From: Escherichia phage vB_EcoM_JB75
Length of the DNA stretch: 64,000 nt
Strand: one strand, 5' to 3'
Sequence record: MH355584.1
In this document: positions 1,340 through 55,337 of the stretch, piece by piece
How the letters are laid out: each line of letters begins with the position of its first letter
Position numbering within the stretch: position 1 is the stretch's first letter
Translations under genes and position numbers: made by a program
The notes under the pieces: model-generated
Database searches by the model: none
What the model saw: only the letters and a program-made list of their open reading frames with translations
Told to the model about the DNA's origin: nothing

Positions 1340-1813
1340 ATGAAATCATATGCTCAATTTTTAAATGAAGCGGTGTTAAATGAAGCATCTAGCACCGAAA
1401 TTCAAGCTGTCGCAAAAGCAGCCATTGCAGCGGGTAAATATTCCTATAAAGATGCTTCTGACGAATCACGATTCCAATTTGCTCGCGACATGAAAGCAGA
1501 AGGATTTACGGGAAATGCAGTTAGTATGGCCTGGAAAAGTCTAGTTGCTACTGGCGCTGCTTTTGCAAAGGCTTCGGGTAAACCTGCTCCTAAAGCAGAT
1601 CCTAAAGCGGCACAAGAAAAAAATATCGTTAAAGGAATTATCGCTAAATATGAAGCTATCCTTAAAGAGCTTTTAGTAATCAAAACCGAAGGCCAAAAGT
1701 TAGCCCGTGCTTATAGTTTCAAAGATAATCCACATGTTCACTCTCTTGAGTATGTTGAAGACATCCAAAAAATTATTAAAGACCGCATTTGGTCTGCTAA
1801 ACAAATCAAATGA
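1340..1813 (+). CDS. Internal protein (Ip-type), N-terminal capsid-targeting sequence
   Basis: 157 aa; N-terminus MKSYAQFLNEA resembles the T4 IPI/II/III targeting sequence MKTYQEFIAE cut by the prohead protease; RBS AGGAAA. Confidence 0.7.
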   Translation: MKSYAQFLNEAVLNEASSTEIQAVAKAAIAAGKYSYKDASDESRFQFARDMKAEGFTGNAVSMAWKSLVATGAAFAKASGKPAPKADPKAAQEKNIVKGIIAKYEAILKELLVIKTEGQKLARAYSFKDNPHVHSLEYVEDIQKIIKDRIWSAKQIK

Positions 1814-1938: not shown

Positions 1939-2502
1939 ATGAAAACCTATGCCGAATTTTTAACCGAAGCAGCAAAATTACCATCTGAAGCAGATCTTAC
2001 TAAAGTATTCTTCCAATTGGACCCAAAAGACCGCGGCGATTTTCTTAAGTGGAAAGCTAAAGCTATTGAAATGTACAACATCGATAATAGTTCTTTTACA
2101 ATGAGTCAAGAAAATAAATTCAATAAAGCATTTTTCAAAATTTCTAAGAAATTGGCATCTGGCGCTCAGGTTCCTAAATCTGTGTTAGCTACTCCTGAAC
2201 GCGCACCTGTTAAAATTTCTAAGAATATGTTCGACACTAAAAAATACGTTAATGCTTTGAATAAAGCTCTTGATGCATTGGATGATGCAAAGAAGGCAGC
2301 CCGCGATCTTCAAGACGTGTACACCGATTTTGACCGCAAAACTAAAGGTTCTATTTCAAATAGCGAACGCAATAGTGTAAGTGTTTATTCTGATAGCCTT
2401 GATGTTCTTGGCGATGCGTATACTGAAATTAAAAATCGTATTAACACTGCATCTAAGCTAAAAGCTGCTGCAGAAGCTATAATAACTAAACTAGGTAAAT
2501 AA
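1939..2502 (+). CDS. Internal protein (Ip-type), N-terminal capsid-targeting sequence
   Basis: 187 aa; N-terminus MKTYAEFLTEAA; lysine-rich. Confidence 0.7.
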   Translation: MKTYAEFLTEAAKLPSEADLTKVFFQLDPKDRGDFLKWKAKAIEMYNIDNSSFTMSQENKFNKAFFKISKKLASGAQVPKSVLATPERAPVKISKNMFDTKKYVNALNKALDALDDAKKAARDLQDVYTDFDRKTKGSISNSERNSVSVYSDSLDVLGDAYTEIKNRINTASKLKAAAEAIITKLGK

Positions 2503-3443: not shown

Positions 3444-4037
3444 ATGAACACACTGAAGAAAATTGTTGAGTTTATTCGCACTAAACTTGGTTCTGCTATG
3501 GCTAAAAATCTATCTGTTGAAGAACAGTATACTGCTGCAGCAGCAAAACTGCTTGATAAAATTAAAGACCTAAAAACTGCTTCTGTTAAATCTATTAATG
3601 AAGAAAAACGTATTCGTGAACTTATTGTTGAAAAGAATAAGCAGGCCGAATCAAAAGAGCGTGAAATTCGCAAGCTTCTTTCTGAAGGTCAAGATGTAAC
3701 AATGCATGCTAAACTCGGTTTACTATATCGTCGAACAGCTGAGCAGTTGACTACTAAGGCTGACGGTTATGCTGAAATGCGAATTGAAATCGCCAAGAAA
3801 GTAGTTGAGTTAGATGATGCTCGTCAAGAACTTGCAGTTAAATTGGAATATATCCGTGAAACTCGTGCGGCAAATGCCCTTGGAATTAGTACTGCCGATG
3901 ATGTAGTTGAAATTGCAGCACTGACTAAGGTTGATATTGAAGATACCCTTGCTCGAGTTGAAACCTTTAATGGTAATATTTCTGGGGTTGAAACTACCTC
4001 TGCCGATGTTCAGGAATACATTAATTCTCTGAAATAA
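3444..4037 (+). CDS. Hypothetical alpha-helical coiled-coil protein (197 aa)
   Basis: Heptad-like charged helical sequence throughout; loosely PspA/IM30-like in composition. Confidence 0.6.
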
Positions 4038-4078
4038 TGATAAGGGGTTTCGGCCCCTTATACTTGGAGTAAATAGGA

Positions 4079-4693
4079 ATGAAAATGAAAATGCAAAGTG
4101 ATTTCAATTCAATGTTTGAAGAGTTCCAAAGACAGGTTGATGTTCCAGACCAATTACTAAATGCTCTTAAACGCATGGCAGAAGGACGTAATTACTATTG
4201 GGGGTCTTCATATGAAACTGATGAAAGCCTTTCCGGAAGATTTTCTAGAGGTAAAAAGTCTTTAATACGTCCTGGAATACTCATTAACAGTATTGAATCA
4301 ATTCATTCATTGACATGCGATTTTGATGTTGAATTTACTGATTTCATTTCTCCTGAATGGACGGTATGTTATTTAAACGACGATTTTGATTATCTCGGTG
4401 TTTATAGTTTAAGTGACGCATGGTTTAAACGTAATTTACAAAAGTCAAATTTATTCTATATTGATACTACAGTAAAATTTCAGGGAAAGAAATATTTCTT
4501 TACTCTTATAGTTGATTCTGAAACGAAGCATGAAAATAAACGTATTCTTAGTAAAAGAAATATCTTGAATATTGTTGATGATCTTTTTGATAAATTAGTG
4601 GAAAATCCTAATTTTGAAAGTGATTTATTACTAGAAAAATTTGTTAAGGAATGTAGAGAATATGTCAAAACCATCACTATACCTTCCAAGTAA
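4079..4693 (+). CDS. Hypothetical protein (204 aa)
   Basis: ORF with RBS GGAG; C-terminus KFVKECREYVK resembles the C-terminal motif of the three following ORFs. Confidence 0.6.
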   Translation: MKMKMQSDFNSMFEEFQRQVDVPDQLLNALKRMAEGRNYYWGSSYETDESLSGRFSRGKKSLIRPGILINSIESIHSLTCDFDVEFTDFISPEWTVCYLNDDFDYLGVYSLSDAWFKRNLQKSNLFYIDTTVKFQGKKYFFTLIVDSETKHENKRILSKRNILNIVDDLFDKLVENPNFESDLLLEKFVKECREYVKTITIPSK

Positions 4694-6939: not shown

Positions 6940-7413
6940 ATGAAAACATATCAAGAATTTATCACTGAAGCAGCTATTAATTCTCAAATTATTGCTGAAT
7001 CTTTTACTGATCTTTTGAAATTTAAAAAAGGTCAAAAAATTACTGCTGTATTGGATGATGGTACAGAAGTTGAGATGGATGTACAGGGATATAATTATGC
7101 AGTAGATGGAAAACTGTATAATAAATCTCATGCTAAATTTGATTCATTTGACGACTTTGTTAATACAGTTGAAGATGAAAAAACTCGTCGATCCATTGCA
7201 ACTGGTGATGCTAAGGTTCTTATGGCACATGGTCATGAACGCATTCGCGCTAAACAGAATAAAATGGGTGAAGATAATTTTGCATTAGTTGGTTATCAAT
7301 CTGGTAAACAAACTTATGGCTATCAACGTACTGCTACAATGTATAATAAAAATGGTAAAATTGCCTTTGTAAATAGTAAAGGTTCTATTCAGTACGTTAA
7401 ATCGTTCAAATAA
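6940..7413 (+). CDS. Internal protein (Ip-type), N-terminal capsid-targeting sequence
   Basis: 157 aa; N-terminus MKTYQEFITEAA; sits where T4 has ipIII, downstream of e. Confidence 0.7.
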   Translation: MKTYQEFITEAAINSQIIAESFTDLLKFKKGQKITAVLDDGTEVEMDVQGYNYAVDGKLYNKSHAKFDSFDDFVNTVEDEKTRRSIATGDAKVLMAHGHERIRAKQNKMGEDNFALVGYQSGKQTYGYQRTATMYNKNGKIAFVNSKGSIQYVKSFK

Positions 7414-27457: not shown

Positions 27458-28490
27458 TAATTTAATTCAGGCTCATGTAAAACCGGTCTAAACGGGGAAC
27501 CTCTCTAGTAGACAATCCCGTGCTAAATGTTCTTTTGAACTAAATGCCTAACGACTAACCGTGATGAATGTAGCGGTGTAGAATAGAAGCTAATGCTATT
27601 CGAAACGGCCGGCATCGAAAGATGAAGATATAGTCTAATCTGCATGGCGACATGCAGCAGTCATCTTGTATAAATAAGATTATCTTATGAATACGAGGTG
27701 AAACAATGAAATGGATAAAAAGACGTTGTACTAAAATAAAAGATAAAGACGCATTTACATACTTAGTTAAGTTTTCTAATGGCGACATTTATATCGGTTA
27801 TAAAAAATTTAGAACAATTAAAAACAAGCCCACAAACTGGAAAACTTACACAACGTCATCTAAGTATATAAATGAACGCTTAAAAACTGATACACCTACT
27901 AAATGGATAATTTTAAAAACATTTGATAGTTATAAAGATGCATTAAAACATGAAGAAGAGGTCATACGTAAGTATTTTTATAGCAAAAAATGTTTAAATA
28001 AATCCATAGGCGGTAAAAAGTTTTATAAGCATCCGGATACTGAAGAACATATTCAAAAATTAAGAGATGCTCATAAGGGTAAAGTGTTATCCGAATCTCA
28101 TAAAAACAATATAAAATCTTCTGTAGCTGAATATTATGCTAAAAACGGAAGATCTAAGGAACATGTGCAAAATAATATCAATAGTCGAAAAAGTAAAAAA
28201 CAAGTATCGATAAAGCTTAAAAATAAAACTTTTAGAAGTTTTAAAAAAGCAGCGGAATATTTAAATTGCACTGAAAGTGAAGTCGAAACTCATCCTCTTG
28301 TTTTGAGTATTAAGACTACTATTCATAAAGTTCCTGAATATGTGGTTGTTGACGGTATTAAGTATACGTCTTATATAGAAGCAGCTAAAGCGCTAAATTT
28401 TCATCCTAGCACTATAAAAGAACGTTGCATATCTATGGACTATCCAAATTTTGTTGTTTCATATAAACGGGCATGAATTTGCGACTCATG
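27458..28490 (+). mobile_element. Group I intron in nrdD carrying a homing endonuclease ORF
   Basis: Boundaries inferred: if the intron is 1033 nt as recalled for T4, this is the only placement with U before the 5' splice site and terminal G that restores the frame. Confidence 0.6.
27706..28476 (+). CDS. Intron-encoded homing endonuclease, I-TevII-like
   Basis: 256-aa basic ORF entirely inside the nrdD interruption, as for T4 I-TevII. Confidence 0.8.
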   Translation: MKWIKRRCTKIKDKDAFTYLVKFSNGDIYIGYKKFRTIKNKPTNWKTYTTSSKYINERLKTDTPTKWIILKTFDSYKDALKHEEEVIRKYFYSKKCLNKSIGGKKFYKHPDTEEHIQKLRDAHKGKVLSESHKNNIKSSVAEYYAKNGRSKEHVQNNINSRKSKKQVSIKLKNKTFRSFKKAAEYLNCTESEVETHPLVLSIKTTIHKVPEYVVVDGIKYTSYIEAAKALNFHPSTIKERCISMDYPNFVVSYKRA

Positions 28491-49853: not shown

Positions 49854-51281
49854 GTGGTAGAAATTATTCTTTCTCATCTCATATTTGATCAAGCTTATTT
49901 TTCAAAAGTTTGGCCATATATGGATTCAGAATATTTTGAAAGTGGTCCAGCTAAAAATACATTCAAATTAATTAAATCTCATGTTAATGAGTATCATAGC
50001 GTTCCATCTATTAATGCGTTAAATGTTGCATTAGAAAATAGTTCATTTACTGAAACAGAATATTCTGGTGTAAAAACACTTATTTCAAAACTGGCTGATT
50101 CTCCGGAAGACCACAGTTGGTTAATAAAAGAAACAGAAAAATATGTTCAGCAAAGGGCGATGTTTAATGCTACGTCTAAAATAATCGAAATTCAAACTAA
50201 TGCTGAGCTTCCTCCGGAAAAACGAAATAAGAAAATGCCAGATGTAGGTGCTATTCCTGACATCATGCGCCAAGCATTATCAATTTCATTTGATAGTTAC
50301 GTTGGTCATGATTGGATGGATGACTACGAAGCACGTTGGCTATCTTATATGAATAAAGCTCGTAAGGTTCCATTTAGACTCAAAATTCTAAATAAAATTA
50401 CTAAAGGTGGAGCTGAAACTGGAACACTGAACGTTTTAATGGCTGGCGTTAACGTTGGTAAGTCATTAGGTCTGTGTTCATTGGCAGCAGATTATTTGCA
50501 GCTCGGACATAATGTTCTTTATATCTCCATGGAAATGGCAGAAGAAGTCTGTGCTAAGCGTATTGATGCTAATATGCTTGATGTTTCTCTTGATGACATT
50601 GATGATGGACATATTTCTTACGCTGAGTATAAAGGAAAAATGGAAAAATGGCGTGAGAAATCTACTCTCGGTCGTTTAATCGTTAAACAATATCCTACTG
50701 GTGGGGCAGATGCTAACACATTCAGGTCTCTCTTGAATGAATTGAAGCTCAAAAAGAATTTTGTTCCAACAATCATTATTGTCGACTATCTGGGTATTTG
50801 TAAATCTTGTCGCATCAGAGTTTATTCAGAAAATAGTTACACAACTGTTAAAGCTATTGCAGAGGAATTGCGTGCTCTTGCTGTTGAAACAGAAACTGTT
50901 CTTTGGACTGCAGCACAGGTTGGTAAACAAGCTTGGGACTCTTCCGATGTTAACATGAGCGATATTGCAGAATCTGCCGGTCTTCCAGCAACAGCTGATT
51001 TTATGCTTGCGGTCATTGAAACCGAGGAGCTAGCAGCTGCTGAACAACAACTCATTAAGCAAATCAAATCACGATATGGTGATAAGAATAAGTGGAATAA
51101 GTTTTTGATGGGTGTTCAAAAAGGAAACCAAAAATGGGTAGAAATTGAACAAGATTCTACTCCAACTGAAGTGAACGAAGTAGCAGGTTCACAGCAAATT
51201 CAGGCTGAACAGAATCGCTATCAAAGAAACGAATCCGCTCGAGCTCAGTTAGATGCTTTGGCAAATGAATTAAAATTTTAG
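49854..51281 (+). CDS. 41: Replicative helicase gp41 (DnaB-like)
   Basis: 475 aa; GTG start 6 nt after AAGGAG; Walker A GVNVGKS; near-identical to recalled T4 gp41. Confidence 0.97.
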   Translation: MVEIILSHLIFDQAYFSKVWPYMDSEYFESGPAKNTFKLIKSHVNEYHSVPSINALNVALENSSFTETEYSGVKTLISKLADSPEDHSWLIKETEKYVQQRAMFNATSKIIEIQTNAELPPEKRNKKMPDVGAIPDIMRQALSISFDSYVGHDWMDDYEARWLSYMNKARKVPFRLKILNKITKGGAETGTLNVLMAGVNVGKSLGLCSLAADYLQLGHNVLYISMEMAEEVCAKRIDANMLDVSLDDIDDGHISYAEYKGKMEKWREKSTLGRLIVKQYPTGGADANTFRSLLNELKLKKNFVPTIIIVDYLGICKSCRIRVYSENSYTTVKAIAEELRALAVETETVLWTAAQVGKQAWDSSDVNMSDIAESAGLPATADFMLAVIETEELAAAEQQLIKQIKSRYGDKNKWNKFLMGVQKGNQKWVEIEQDSTPTEVNEVAGSQQIQAEQNRYQRNESARAQLDALANELKF

Positions 51282-51311
51282 TTTACAAGCTGACAAGACT
51301 ATGGTATAGTA
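51282..51311 (+). promoter_or_regulatory. T4-type early promoter
   Basis: -35 GTTTAC, 18-bp spacer, -10 TATAGT; perfect 8-bp inverted repeat ACAAGACT/AGTCTTGT flanks it. Confidence 0.65.
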
Positions 51312-51339: not shown

Positions 51340-51522
51340 ATGGAATTGGTAAAGGTAGTTTTTATGGGGTGGTTTAAGAACGAAAGCATGTTTACTAAAG
51401 AGATCACAATGATGAAAGATGACGTTCAATGGGCTACTACTCAATATGCTGAAGTTAATAAAGCACTAGTTAAAGCTTTCATTGATGACAAGAAGGTATG
51501 TGAAGTGGATTGCCGAGGATAA
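51340..51522 (+). CDS. dmd: Dmd-like protein
   Basis: 60 aa, first ORF after gene 41; size and position match T4 dmd (61.5); sequence not verified. Confidence 0.55.
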   Translation: MELVKVVFMGWFKNESMFTKEITMMKDDVQWATTQYAEVNKALVKAFIDDKKVCEVDCRG

Positions 51523-51523
51523 T

Positions 51524-51781
51524 ATGCATATCGTTTTATTTAAACCTACTCCGTATAATGTCAGGAAAAATACTCAATTCAAAGCACTTATTGCAGATAC
51601 GTGGGAATTAGTATTAGATATTCCGGCAGAAGAAAGCCCTCCATTTGGTCGAGTGGAATTTATTAAGTTTGCTGTGCGCCCTACAAAGCGACAGATTCGT
51701 CAATGCAAAAGATACTTTCGTAAAATCGCCAAGTTAGAGAAACAGTTTGTAACATGTGATTATGCAGAAGTTTTAAAATAA
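51524..51781 (+). CDS. Hypothetical basic protein (85 aa; T4 61.4 position)
   Basis: ATG after RBS GAGGA, 2 nt after upstream stop. Confidence 0.5.
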   Translation: MHIVLFKPTPYNVRKNTQFKALIADTWELVLDIPAEESPPFGRVEFIKFAVRPTKRQIRQCKRYFRKIAKLEKQFVTCDYAEVLK

Positions 51782-51783
51782 CT

Positions 51784-51813
51784 GTTTACTTTTATTGGAA
51801 ATTGAGATACTAT
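51784..51813 (+). promoter_or_regulatory. T4-type early promoter
   Basis: -35 GTTTAC, 18-bp spacer, -10 TACTAT. Confidence 0.65.
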
Positions 51814-51841
51814 ATAAACATAAACTACTGAGGAGATTATC

Positions 51842-52135
51842 ATGAAAAAATTTATCTTTGCTGCAATTTTTGCTTTATCTTCTTGCGCTGCTCAGCCTGC
51901 TATGGCGGGTTATGACAAAGATTTGTGCGAATGGTCTATGACTGCAGATCAGACTGAAGTTGAAATTCAAATTGAAGCGGATATTATGAATATCGTTGAA
52001 CGTGATCGTCCTGAAATGAAAGCTGAAGTGCAAAAACAACTTAAATCTGGTGGTGTAATGCAGTATAATTATGTTCTGTATTGCGATAAAAACTTTAATA
52101 ATAAAAATATCATCGCTGAAGTGGTAGGTGAGTAA
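51842..52135 (+). CDS. sp: Spackle-like periplasmic protein
   Basis: 97 aa with signal peptide MKKFIFAAIFALSSCAA; size and position match T4 sp (61.3). Confidence 0.6.
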   Translation: MKKFIFAAIFALSSCAAQPAMAGYDKDLCEWSMTADQTEVEIQIEADIMNIVERDRPEMKAEVQKQLKSGGVMQYNYVLYCDKNFNNKNIIAEVVGE

Positions 52136-52147
52136 TTAGAGGTTAGT

Positions 52148-52504
52148 ATGTATAGTTCTGAATTTTCATATTTAAAAATGGAAAAAATTTCATACGATTT
52201 TATAGATGAAAAGGTTTATTACAGTTTCCATGAACCACGTTTTAATAGTGAGGTTGGGTTTATTGTAGTAAAAGACAATTTTATTTTAAAAATATATTCA
52301 GCATTAAAGGATTTTCATTACGAAAATATTAACCTAAAATTTAATAAAGAAAACGTTCGTAATTGCGCAGTAACAATTACAGGAAATAAAGGTACATGTG
52401 TTATGCTATCTGATGAAATTAATGATTTGCTAAATGATGCAGAAAATATTACTGCGCCATCTATTGATGACCAAATTTTTAATGCTTTTATGAATAGAGG
52501 TTAA
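52148..52504 (+). CDS. Hypothetical protein (118 aa; T4 61.2 position)
   Basis: ATG after RBS AGAGG. Confidence 0.55.
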   Translation: MYSSEFSYLKMEKISYDFIDEKVYYSFHEPRFNSEVGFIVVKDNFILKIYSALKDFHYENINLKFNKENVRNCAVTITGNKGTCVMLSDEINDLLNDAENITAPSIDDQIFNAFMNRG

Positions 52505-52505
52505 T

Positions 52506-52670
52506 ATGAAAACATATAAAGAATTTATTAAAGAAGATATGGTCGCTGGAGATTCAGGTGGTAATCCTGAAAATATCTCTACTGGAACAACGTCAGGTGC
52601 TGTAGTAAATAAAGGTCCTGAACAGATTCCTAAAAAGAAAAAAGAGGAATCTAAAGAAAAAGAAGAGTAA
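52506..52670 (+). CDS. Small protein with capsid-targeting-like N-terminus (54 aa; T4 61.1 position)
   Basis: N-terminus MKTYKEFIKE resembles the Ip targeting sequence; rest is Gly/Ser/Lys-rich low complexity; RBS AGAGG. Confidence 0.5.
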   Translation: MKTYKEFIKEDMVAGDSGGNPENISTGTTSGAVVNKGPEQIPKKKKEESKEKEE

Positions 52671-52672
52671 AA

Positions 52673-53701
52673 ATGTCATCAATACCTTGGATTGATAATG
52701 AGTTTGCGTATCGTGCATTAGCTCATTTACCTAAATTCACACAAGTAAATAATAGTTCAACTTTTAAATTGCGGTTTAGATGCCCTGTTTGTGGAGATTC
52801 AAAAACCGACCAGAATAAAGCTCGTGGATGGTATTATGGTGATAATAATGAAGGAAATATTCATTGTTATAACTGTAACTATCATGCACCAATCGGAATA
52901 TATCTAAAGGAGTTTGAACCTGATTTATATCGTGAGTATATCTTTGAAATAAGAAAAGAAAAAGGTAAAAGTCGTCCAGTAGAAAAACCTAAAGAACTTC
53001 CTAAACAACCTGAGAAGAAAATAATTAAATCTCTTCCGTCATGCGTTAGATTAGATAAACTGGCGGAAGACCATCCAATTATAAAATACGTAAAAGCTCG
53101 TTGTATTCCAAAGGATAAATGGAAATATCTTTGGTTTACAACTGAATGGCCTAAATTAGTTAATAGCATAGCACCGGGAACATACAAAAAGGAAATTTCT
53201 GAGCCTCGTCTTGTTATTCCAATTTATAATGCTAATGGAAAAGCTGAGTCTTTTCAAGGACGTGCATTAAAGAAAGATGCTCCTCAAAAATATATCACCA
53301 TTAAAGCTTATCCTGAGGCAACAAAAATCTATGGAGTCGAACGAGTTAAAGATGGTGATGTATATGTTCTAGAAGGACCTATAGATTCGCTTTTTATTGA
53401 AAATGGTATAGCTATTACGGGTGGTCAATTAGACCTAGAAGTTGTTCCATTTAAAGATAGACGCGTGTGGGTTTTAGATAATGAACCTCGTCATCCTGAC
53501 ACTATTAAGCGAATGACTAAATTAGTTGATGCAGGAGAAAGGGTTATGTTTTGGGATAAATCTCCCTGGAAATCAAAAGATGTTAATGATATGATTAGAA
53601 AGGAAGGTGCAACCCCTGAACAAATTATGGAATATATGAAAAATAATATTGCCCAGGGGTTAATGGCTAAAATGCGGTTATCTAAATATGCCAAGATTTA
53701 A
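52673..53701 (+). CDS. 61: DNA primase gp61
   Basis: 342 aa; N-terminal zinc ribbon CPVCGDS...CYNC; near-identical to recalled T4 gp61. Confidence 0.97.
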   Translation: MSSIPWIDNEFAYRALAHLPKFTQVNNSSTFKLRFRCPVCGDSKTDQNKARGWYYGDNNEGNIHCYNCNYHAPIGIYLKEFEPDLYREYIFEIRKEKGKSRPVEKPKELPKQPEKKIIKSLPSCVRLDKLAEDHPIIKYVKARCIPKDKWKYLWFTTEWPKLVNSIAPGTYKKEISEPRLVIPIYNANGKAESFQGRALKKDAPQKYITIKAYPEATKIYGVERVKDGDVYVLEGPIDSLFIENGIAITGGQLDLEVVPFKDRRVWVLDNEPRHPDTIKRMTKLVDAGERVMFWDKSPWKSKDVNDMIRKEGATPEQIMEYMKNNIAQGLMAKMRLSKYAKI

Positions 53702-53898
53702 ATTAACCCAACTAAAGCAAATGCTAGATCTACGAATGTATCAAGAGTAACTACTGGAATATTAACACCATGCGCAATTGCAATTGGTGATAAAATAAAG
53801 TTCCAGAGTAAAATTCCTACCATAGCAGAAATAGTAAAAGCTATACGTTTTTTATTACCTTTTATGGCATTAACAAGTGCCATTAATTTTTGTGCCAT
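53698..53898 (-). CDS. Small membrane protein on the minus strand (66 aa)
   Basis: Strong SD AAGGAGGA 3 nt before ATG; two hydrophobic helices; convergent with gene 61, stop codons overlap; no + strand ORF covers this interval. Confidence 0.55.
   Translation of the reverse strand: MAQKLMALVNAIKGNKKRIAFTISAMVGILLWNFILSPIAIAHGVNIPVVTLDTFVDLAFALVGLI

Positions 53899-53997: not shown

Positions 53998-55337
<1,340 letters not shown>

Follow-up and report, generated by a model that had tools for sequence, protein, structure and literature searches.

We analyzed a stretch of 64,000 nucleotides (nt) from Escherichia phage vB_EcoM_JB75 (sequence record MH355584.1), hereafter the window, and in particular a block of five small open reading frames (ORFs) on its plus strand, between the replicative helicase gene 41 and the primase gene 61. 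A preliminary description of this DNA had placed ORFs of 60, 85, 97, 118 and 54 amino acids (aa) between these two replication genes; all five were recovered at that place and strand, with both borders as described. The gene order is that of T4 (uvsX, 40, 41, dmd, 61.4, sp, 61.2, 61.1, 61, dam). The last ORF of the block, gene 61.1, is the main subject of this work. Its product, gp61.1, is almost certainly, as judged from profile comparisons, a conserved free-standing copy of one segment of the major capsid protein (MCP) gp23, namely the one that comprises the end of the propeptide, the site cut by the prohead protease gp21, and the N-fist.

Gene 61.1 is listed as "hypothetical" in T4 annotations, and a literature search for gp61.1 returned annotation tables only, with no functional statement and no report of the protein in virions. 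Neither Pfam nor NCBIfam has a family for it, be it in the short form found here or in the long form described below. The protein matches phrog_1823 over its full length, and its residues 8-53 match positions 109-154 of the 156-position phrog_2086 (E=2.6e-16). The gene is tightly packed between its neighbors: the stop codon of 61.2 (52502-52504) ends 1 nt before the ATG of 61.1, and the stop codon of 61.1 lies 2 nt ahead of the ATG of gene 61. Gene 61.1 is translationally coupled to 61.2 on the upstream side and to the primase gene on the downstream side.

The peptide had been described as continuing in low complexity after residue 10, which does not agree with the alignment of 16 short homologues. 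The stretch from Glu10 to Glu39 holds 14 of the 16 invariant columns of the family, Glu10 itself is invariant among the short forms, and only the K/E tail is variable. We computed the ratio of non-synonymous to synonymous substitution rates (dN/dS) for the 30-codon core across the window, T4, RB69, RB16, Aeromonas phage 65 and Acinetobacter phage Apostate. The values range from 0.13 to 0.33, with dS up to ~2.5, i.e., with synonymous sites near saturation. The conservation of the core and its low dN/dS indicate purifying selection, and hence that the peptide is translated and selected for its sequence. As for the tail, the T6-type variant (P0002, 62 aa) is frameshifted after a KKKK run (…KKKKRNLKKKKSKNVINTLD), in a part that corresponds to positions 52632-52670 of the window, so that its ORF must extend into the start of the primase gene 61. 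The A-rich run in this tail looks prone to slippage.

The relation to the capsid was suggested by the databases, where some homologues of gp61.1 are named "major capsid domain-containing protein", and these names prompted a direct test. A hidden Markov model built from the short family identified gp23 (E=1.3e-7) among 1616 six-frame ORFs from the window and 50 kb of T4. The alignment joins residues 3-40 of gp61.1 to residues 58-95 of gp23 without gaps, with 16 identities over 38 positions. In the reciprocal search, a profile of capsid-protein residues 50-105, run against the 938 window ORFs, had gp61.1 as its sole match (E=3.4e-8, the runner-up having 0.65). When the family profiles were aligned to the capsid segment with hhalign, the probability was 96% for both families, at E=4.6e-9 (short) and 1.7e-9 (long). 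Against 177,635 distinct PDB sequences, the only chains with E<0.2 were those of gp23 (1.4e-5 with the short family and 1.1e-6 with the long family). At the DNA level the two genes have 50% nt identity, and the third codon position agrees in 5 of the 16 identical residues; the similarity must therefore be old and maintained at the protein level. It is also the probable explanation of the database names that led to the comparison.

This segment of gp23 is described in the literature. The 65-residue propeptide of gp23 is removed by gp21 after Glu65 (LTE65↓A66) (PMC9546572), and the N-fist corresponds to residues 66-91 (PMC7136217). Residues 66-105 are disordered in the unexpanded prohead, where they probably touch the scaffolding core (PMC9546572). 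Once the head has expanded, the N-fist segment is found on the outside, is in contact with four subunits and contributes to the Soc-binding site. What gp61.1 has in common with gp23 runs from the end of the propeptide through the maturation site to the N-fist, with the cleavage Glu in register: Glu10 falls on Glu65, residues 11-36 fall on the N-fist (66-91), and the segment MKTYKEFIKE aligns with AFGSFLTE (gp23 residues 58-65). The two proteins differ further on, where gp61.1 continues as a Lys-rich tail while gp23 enters its N-arm and the Gol/P-domain region. gp61.1 has no HK97-fold body: it has 54 residues and no Pfam hit, including to the gp23 family (PF07068), and the homology is confined to gp23 residues 58-95. 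Small ORFs that derive from head protein genes have been noted before in T4, where alt.-1 and alt.-2 arose, according to the note in the T4 record, by partial 5' duplication of the gene of a packaged head protein. However, these ORFs adjoin their parent gene and look decayed, whereas ~86 kb separates 61.1, which is ancient and conserved, from gene 23.

The gp61.1 of RB16 matches its own MCP at 16 of 30 positions and other MCPs at 14 of 30, a weak signal of co-variation within genomes, and a search for more diverse capsid N-termini returned mostly fragments. Hits named "major capsid protein" were obtained with tblastn in Serratia phage WSPA and Klebsiella phage VAC13, and were rejected as independent proof: they are mis-annotated long forms of gp61.1 (139 aa and 162 aa, respectively) and are therefore not counted as evidence of capsid homology. 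The deposited label (positions 134-553 in WSPA, 44-532 in VAC13) is an annotation error, probably due to the N-fist-like module. In WSPA the gene immediately precedes that of the primase, and Klebsiella phage Roth21 may be a further case of a mislabelled long form.

Table 1. Features of the window discussed in the text, with their positions, and long-form relatives of gene 61.1 in other phages.
Feature	Position	Strand	Description
Ip-like ORF (ORF 1340), MKSYAQFLNE	1340-1813	+	CTS N-terminus
Ip-like ORF (ORF 1939), MKTYAEFLTE	1939-2502	+	CTS N-terminus
Ip-like ORF (ORF 6940), MKTYQEFITE	6940-7413	+	CTS N-terminus; matches Pfam DUF7412
Gene 41, replicative helicase, left border	49854-51281	+	475 aa; few substitutions relative to T4 gp41
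Early-type promoter-like site upstream of dmd	51282-51310	+	TTTACA, 17-nt spacer, TATAGT, with TG
dmd (61.5), antitoxin against RnlA/LsoA	51340-51522	+	60 aa; Pfam Dmd PF17587; 60/60 identical to T4
61.4 = tifA, ToxN inhibitor	51524-51781	+	85 aa from ATG; Pfam DUF7279; 83/85 identical to T4
sp (61.3), Spackle, periplasmic, signal peptide	51842-52135	+	97 aa; T4_Spackle PF25676; 93/97 identical to T4
61.2-position gene, T2-type allele	52148-52504	+	118 aa; distant relative of the C-terminal half of AdfA
Ribosome-binding site GAGG of 61.1	52497-52500	+	Read from the sequence; 5 nt before the ATG
Gene 61.1	52506-52670	+	54 aa and stop, MKTYKEFIKEDMVAGDSGGNPENISTGTTSGAVVNKGPEQIPKKKKEESKEKEE; 52/54 identical to T4 gp61.1
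Codons 1-10 of 61.1, MKTYKEFIKE	52506-52535	+	CTS-like putative pro-segment ending in gp21-type site I-K-E
Codons 11-38 of 61.1, conserved core DMVAGDSGGNPENISTGTTSGAVVNKGP	52536-52619	+	Homologous to gp23* N-fist segment (gp23 residues 66-93)
Codons 39-54 of 61.1, variable Lys-rich tail EQIPKKKKEESKEKEE	52620-52667	+	Purine-rich DNA also holds the gene 61 ribosome-binding region
Gene 61, primase, right border	52673-53701	+	342 aa; few substitutions relative to T4 gp61
Long-form relatives of 61.1			RB16, 163 aa; Aeromonas phage 65, 121 aa; Vibrio phage VH7D, 159 aa; Acinetobacter phage Apostate, 158 aa; module at the C-terminus

The N-terminus of gp61.1 also resembles the capsid-targeting sequence (CTS) found on internal proteins (Ips) in T4, as the preliminary description had pointed out. 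We scored the first 10 residues of the 956 ATG-initiated ORFs of the window against the T4 CTS, MKTYQEFIAE, a sequence supported by the window's own Ip-like ORFs. gp61.1 scores 8/10 and ranks second, after ORF 6940 (9/10) and before ORFs 1939 (7/10) and 1340 (5/10), all others scoring at most 4; the fit is thus more than expected by chance. The T4 protein starts with MKTFKEFIKE. Compared directly with ORF 6940, gp61.1 is identical at 8 of the 10 CTS residues, and the first 30 nt of the two genes agree at 26 positions with nothing matching on either side, but this DNA match may reflect codon bias, and the transfer of a CTS from an ip gene is neither proved nor excluded by it.

The functional map of the CTS comes from the work of L. 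W. Black, reviewed in PMC9026906. The first 10 residues of IPIII suffice for its incorporation in the head; mutagenesis showed targeting to depend mostly on positions 4 and 7, and processing on positions 8 and 10; gp21 cleaves after the Glu of L/I-x-E; and foreign proteins tagged with a CTS are packaged and delivered into the host. All four of these mapped positions are present in gp61.1 (Tyr4, Phe7, Ile8 and Glu10), where they correspond to F59, F62, L63 and E65 of gp23, and I8-K9-E10 is the sole [LI]-x-E site of the peptide. An aromatic residue at position 4, Phe7, Ile or Leu at position 8, Glu10 and the L/I-x-E site are shared by gp61.1, the Ip-like ORFs of the window, and the CTS of T4 IPI, IPII and IPIII. 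There are also differences from the T4 internal proteins. Gene 61.1 lacks a late promoter, encodes Asp instead of Ala after the site, and descends from a longer, primase-adjacent gene devoid of CTS. Its predicted mature part is a slightly acidic, near-invariant peptide of 44 aa, whereas the Ips are diverse folded proteins.

The distribution of the family provides further information on this descent. The alignments indicate that 61.1 is the C-terminal remnant of a protein of 120-165 aa encoded beside the primase gene in distant T4-like phages. This long form (phrog_2086; found in RB16, KVP40-like, Acinetobacter and Aeromonas phages) is directly upstream of the primase gene in Aeromonas phage 65, VH7D and Apostate, while a 73-aa ORF intervenes in RB16. 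It ends in the module E↓DMVAGD...NIASGTTTGAVVNKGP...KKRK, and the general pattern of this module, E↓(D/E)MVAGD...NIASG.T.G...GP with a basic tail after it, is present in the gp61.1 of the window. What the window protein lacks is the N-domain of ~100 aa, in place of which it has the CTS-like start. This domain is conserved among 24 long sequences (YAYRFIRLMQK..W.A...IID..G.VLKRP). In the AlphaFold model of one long form it is helical, with predicted local distance difference test (pLDDT) values of 80-90, whereas the module is disordered (pLDDT <50); a Foldseek search of this model against the PDB gave no structural relative. RB69 is an apparent intermediate between the two forms: its long gene (2199-2665 of L003) is split into ORF032c, with 63 aa that cover the N-domain and a frameshifted end, and a gp61.1 of 92 aa. 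All that is left in T4 and the window is the last 54 codons. Aeromonas phage 65 has genes 41, 61.1 and 61 in direct succession, without dmd, tifA, sp or 61.2, which places 61.1 in the conserved replication cluster and not in the variable island that now precedes it.

The short form is nearly unchanged across hundreds of Tequatrovirus genomes. Divergent short forms open again with MKxFxEF...E immediately ahead of the core, and highly divergent ones from metagenomes start with MKTFNEFLKEAE↓VSGD, MIKFKDFVES↓MVAGD or MINFKKFVEN↓MTAGD. One of them (P0101) is encoded just upstream of a primase gene. Another one, P0102 (52 aa, MKIKTFDEFVEAMVAGD…; positions 4001-4159 of the metagenomic T4-like contigs L010-L012), lies between topoisomerase and DNA ligase genes, with no primase gene beside it; this ORF overlaps each of its neighbors by 11 nt. 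At position P4, counted from the predicted cleavage site, long forms have Pro (PLFE). The short forms follow the CTS pattern, with Phe at this position and an aromatic residue at P7.

Taken with the gp23 register, this pattern leads us to propose, as the best supported of the readings considered but one that we would not yet call probable, that gp61.1 is a substrate of gp21 in the prohead. gp61.1 would be recognised in the assembling prohead just as the propeptides of gp23 and the Ips are, binding to the scaffolding core via Y4, F7 and I8, and would then be cut by gp21 after Glu10, releasing a free N-fist peptide of 44 residues inside the head. Cleaved, the protein would be expected to give DMVAGDSGGNPENIS(T/I)GTTSGAVVNK, and uncleaved, EDMVAGD.... 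Conservation of the cleavage-type site agrees with this reading: of 90 distinct sequence contexts in the family, 87 have Glu at P1, and 59 of these 87 have Leu or Ile at P3 (the remainder being mostly Met, Phe or Val). Early transcription of 61.1 is compatible with a role in the head, since the true ip genes are classified in T4 omics data as "early RNA, late protein", with IPI-III as "late protein". The phylogenetic range is consistent with a link to the capsid as well. We found 61.1 in 1485 phage records and gp23 segment 58-95 in 1496, with near-identical counts per genus, whereas capsid residues 96-140 are found in 2560 records, including 388 of Synechococcus phages and 61 named Cyanophage. 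This co-occurrence of N-fist and 61.1 module at the level of clades lends weak support to a functional link.

Several observations weigh against this proposal. To begin with, the two queries used to count records can cross-hit and the co-occurrences are not independent events. In counting the contexts of the cleavage-type site, the choice of P1 favored Glu with a hydrophobic P3, which slightly inflates the count. In place of a CTS, the long-form relatives carry a helical N-domain that is unrelated to it, and their P4 is Pro. When the short-family profile was searched against 1.84 billion proteins, it returned only relatives of 50-251 aa and no capsid protein at significance. At the predicted cut, P1' is Asp in gp61.1 and Ala in gp23 and in the Ip-like ORFs. 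The late-promoter motif TATAAATA is absent from the plus strand between positions 27669 and 55947 of the window; it does occur at 1296 and 6323, in one case 44 nt upstream of the Ip-like ORF 1340. gp61.1 was not detected in the proteome of T4-infected cells, which reached up to 85% coverage, although the semi-tryptic N-terminal peptide of the cleaved protein would escape a fully tryptic search. The predicted mature peptide (44 aa) has a net charge of -2. True Ips, which associate with DNA, are basic, unlike this peptide; the post-cleavage peptides of RB69, CkP1 and T6-type forms carry charges from +4 to +6. Finally, the openings of the capsomers (14-17 A) are a probable exit of core fragments (PMC9546572), through which a peptide of 44 aa could escape.

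Alternatively, gp61.1 might be an early cytoplasmic peptide that imitates the N-terminal segment of the MCP and never enters the prohead, either as a decoy for a host immune sensor of gp23 or as a competitor for gp21, the gp22 core or a chaperone, thereby delaying or tuning assembly. Host sensing of gp23 has a precedent in the 29-residue Gol segment, located in the first quarter of the protein (PMC3014915). In T4 the 61.1 transcript is early, no late promoter serves the gene, and it is transcribed with an early block in which three genes are proven anti-toxin factors. The similarity to gp23, being ancient and kept at the level of the protein, also speaks for mimicry, and so does the predicted disorder of the core in the long form, as for a motif that folds on binding. 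Yet, the position of 61.1 outside the variable island, as seen in Aeromonas phage 65, and its conservation fit a housekeeping gene better than an accessory anti-defence one. Mimicry would also leave unexplained both the family-wide Glu at P1 with its hydrophobic P3 and the recurrent CTS-like N-termini of the short forms. We know of no sensor of the 61.1-like segment of gp23. A role as decoy for Lit was considered and rejected: the Gol segment presumably spans residues ~93-122 of gp23, just past the 61.1-like segment, and 61.1 would therefore not contain it. We regard mimicry, in either variant, as rather unlikely.

The genomic context could point instead to replication. In T4, the window, RB69, Aeromonas phage 65, VH7D, Apostate, WSPA and one metagenomic contig, 61.1 or its long form is found immediately upstream of the primase gene. 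In the window its stop codon almost abuts gene 61 and its purine-rich tail holds the ribosome-binding region of that gene, and the T6-type variant shows that frameshifts in this tail are tolerated. Under this explanation, 61.1 would be a leader ORF that delivers ribosomes to gene 61, or a small replisome factor, and the likeness to the capsid would be incidental. However, purifying selection on the core is not expected of a pure leader, some homologues have no adjoining primase gene (P0102, VAC13), RB16 has an ORF between 61.1 and 61, and the statistically specific match to gp23 would have no explanation. We consider this quite improbable.

The preliminary description had gone further than the gp21-substrate reading, noting that the peptide, if processed and packaged, would be delivered by the virion. 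In full, this suggestion has the 44-aa peptide kept in the mature head as a true internal protein and injected with the DNA, to act as an anti-defence effector like IPI*. Up to cleavage, the same evidence applies to both. Beyond it, the suggestion could draw on the delivery of CTS-tagged foreign proteins and on the strongly basic post-cleavage peptides of RB69, CkP1 and the T6-type relatives. The peptides of the window and T4 are acidic by contrast and small enough for the capsomer openings, and gp61.1 is absent from the proteomic detections in infected cells. The near-invariant core points to a single conserved partner, while effectors of the Ip type are highly diverse (PMC3012670). Nor is gp61.1 known to have been listed in decades of work on T4 head proteins and internal peptides. 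These points make retention in the virion and injection the least certain step, and a doubtful one. That 61.1 is a decaying, non-functional leftover of the long gene with a coincidental CTS-like start, as the split gene of RB69 might suggest, is very improbable given a short form nearly constant over hundreds of Tequatrovirus genomes, its good ribosome-binding site, the purifying selection on its core and the same architecture in very divergent short forms.

The genes that precede 61.1 require less discussion. The block is the already known early anti-toxin ("anti-TA") island of Tequatroviruses, with dmd, tifA, sp and a T2-type 61.2, and then 61.1. The stretch, 1.6 kb long, shares 99.3% identity with Tequatrovirus genomes such as vB_EcoM-CHD2BS1 and matches 509 phage records with an identity of at least 90%. 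In T4, dmd-tifA is transcribed from an early promoter located upstream of dmd (Srikant et al. 2022, PMC9391042), and the site found here at the same place agrees with the consensus at 10 of 12 positions and is the best-scoring promoter-like site of the region. Time-resolved omics of T4 show dmd, 61.4, sp and 61.2 to be early, both as RNA and as protein. The region, with adfA (61.2), was proposed as an "anti-TA island" in which the other genes are "attractive anti-toxin candidates", and the known targets are RnlA/LsoA for dmd, ToxN for 61.4/tifA, a protein inhibitor, and DarT1 for 61.2/adfA (PMC9391042). The earlier expectation that several genes of the block act against toxins or defences was thus well founded. 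Compared with that T4 island, dmd, tifA and sp are near-identical here and share order and early promoter, while the position of 61.2 is occupied by a 118-aa T2-type gene. All four genes are published or otherwise known, and they add nothing new.

Their assignments are straightforward, and alignment to the T4 counterparts, which had been suggested as a check, bore out the identities of Dmd, 61.4, Sp and gp61.1 (Table 1). Dmd matches PF17587 over its full length (156.9 bits for a cut-off of 27). The start of 61.4 is coupled to the stop codon of dmd; the mechanical list of ORFs has a longer version of it, from a TTG start. Its product matches DUF7279 (72.7 bits, cut-off 24.5), and by this family profile and its near-identity to the tested T4 protein it is identified as TifA, a predicted inhibitor of ToxN. 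The 97-aa ORF with a signal peptide is sp, as had been supposed: residues 1-96 match positions 1-96 of the 96-position T4_Spackle profile, signal peptide included (150.9 bits).

The sizes that the preliminary description gave for the T4 genes were right for dmd, 61.4, sp and 61.1 but not for 61.2, whose T4 product has 208 aa and not 118. The 118-aa protein of the window is 98% identical to that of T2, is present in 336 phage records, and matches phrog_4122 over its full length; its identity with T4 gp61.2 is confined to the last 14 residues. It reaches 32.2 bits against the Pfam AdfA profile (PF23813, cut-off 27), with residues 22-118 on positions 113-211 of 211. The N-terminal half of AdfA is absent, and the protein is therefore not a full-length AdfA (~210 aa). 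T2 was described as naturally devoid of an adfA homologue in a preprint of the LeRoux lab (PMC11257639), although the T2-type protein exceeds the Pfam cut-off over this C-terminal half. In the same preprint, neutralisation of DarT1 is enabled by a His equivalent to residue 164 of RB69 AdfA (PMC11257639). The His of T4 gp61.2 in NHIAS pairs with an Asn of the 118-aa protein, in an alignment whose low local identity makes the pairing uncertain.

Two other ORFs were observed downstream of the primase gene. A hydrophobic ORF of 66 aa (53698-53898, minus strand, phrog_2024) follows directly after gene 61; it has the position and strand of RB69ORF029w, and is without annotation in the T4 RefSeq record. 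Further on, an ORF of 186 aa (53998-54558, plus strand, phrog_8706, function unknown) has a stop codon that overlaps the start of dam (54558). It carries a PD-(D/E)xK-like stretch, and its Pfam matches to restriction endonucleases (DpnII, E=0.0045, and BanI) are weak and fall below the threshold. T4 has at this site a gap of only ~310 bp, and the region is complete in 145 of 503 matching phage records.

The novelty of these results lies in 61.1, a selected copy of the exact capsid segment that is cut by the head protease, for which the idea of cleavage and packaging is specific and can be tested cheaply. Earlier traces of its homology to the maturation site and N-fist of the capsid protein seem limited to odd database names. 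From its sequence, gp61.1 reads as a peptide with a CTS-like start and a predicted gp21 site that copies the N-terminal arm of the capsid protein and descends from a conserved gene adjacent to the primase. It is conceivable, albeit unlikely on present evidence, that the family forms an unrecognised class of "free N-fist" peptides, i.e., stand-alone copies of maturation site and N-fist. Such peptides could be cleaved by gp21 and then take part in capsid assembly, filling docking sites left without a partner around the portal, or at the gp24 vertices if these are free; they could time the action of the protease or the expansion; or, as another possibility, they could be decoys that shield the capsid segment from host immune sensors. 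If so, a gene of the replication cluster would contribute in a hidden way to head morphogenesis or to the evasion of capsid sensing. Should its action turn out to be cytoplasmic, gp61.1 might represent a new type of structural-protein epitope mimic. If it is processed, the T4 head, among the best-studied virus assemblies, would gain an unlisted component or regulator, and the CTS would be one version of a more general "gp23 propeptide-end" signal.

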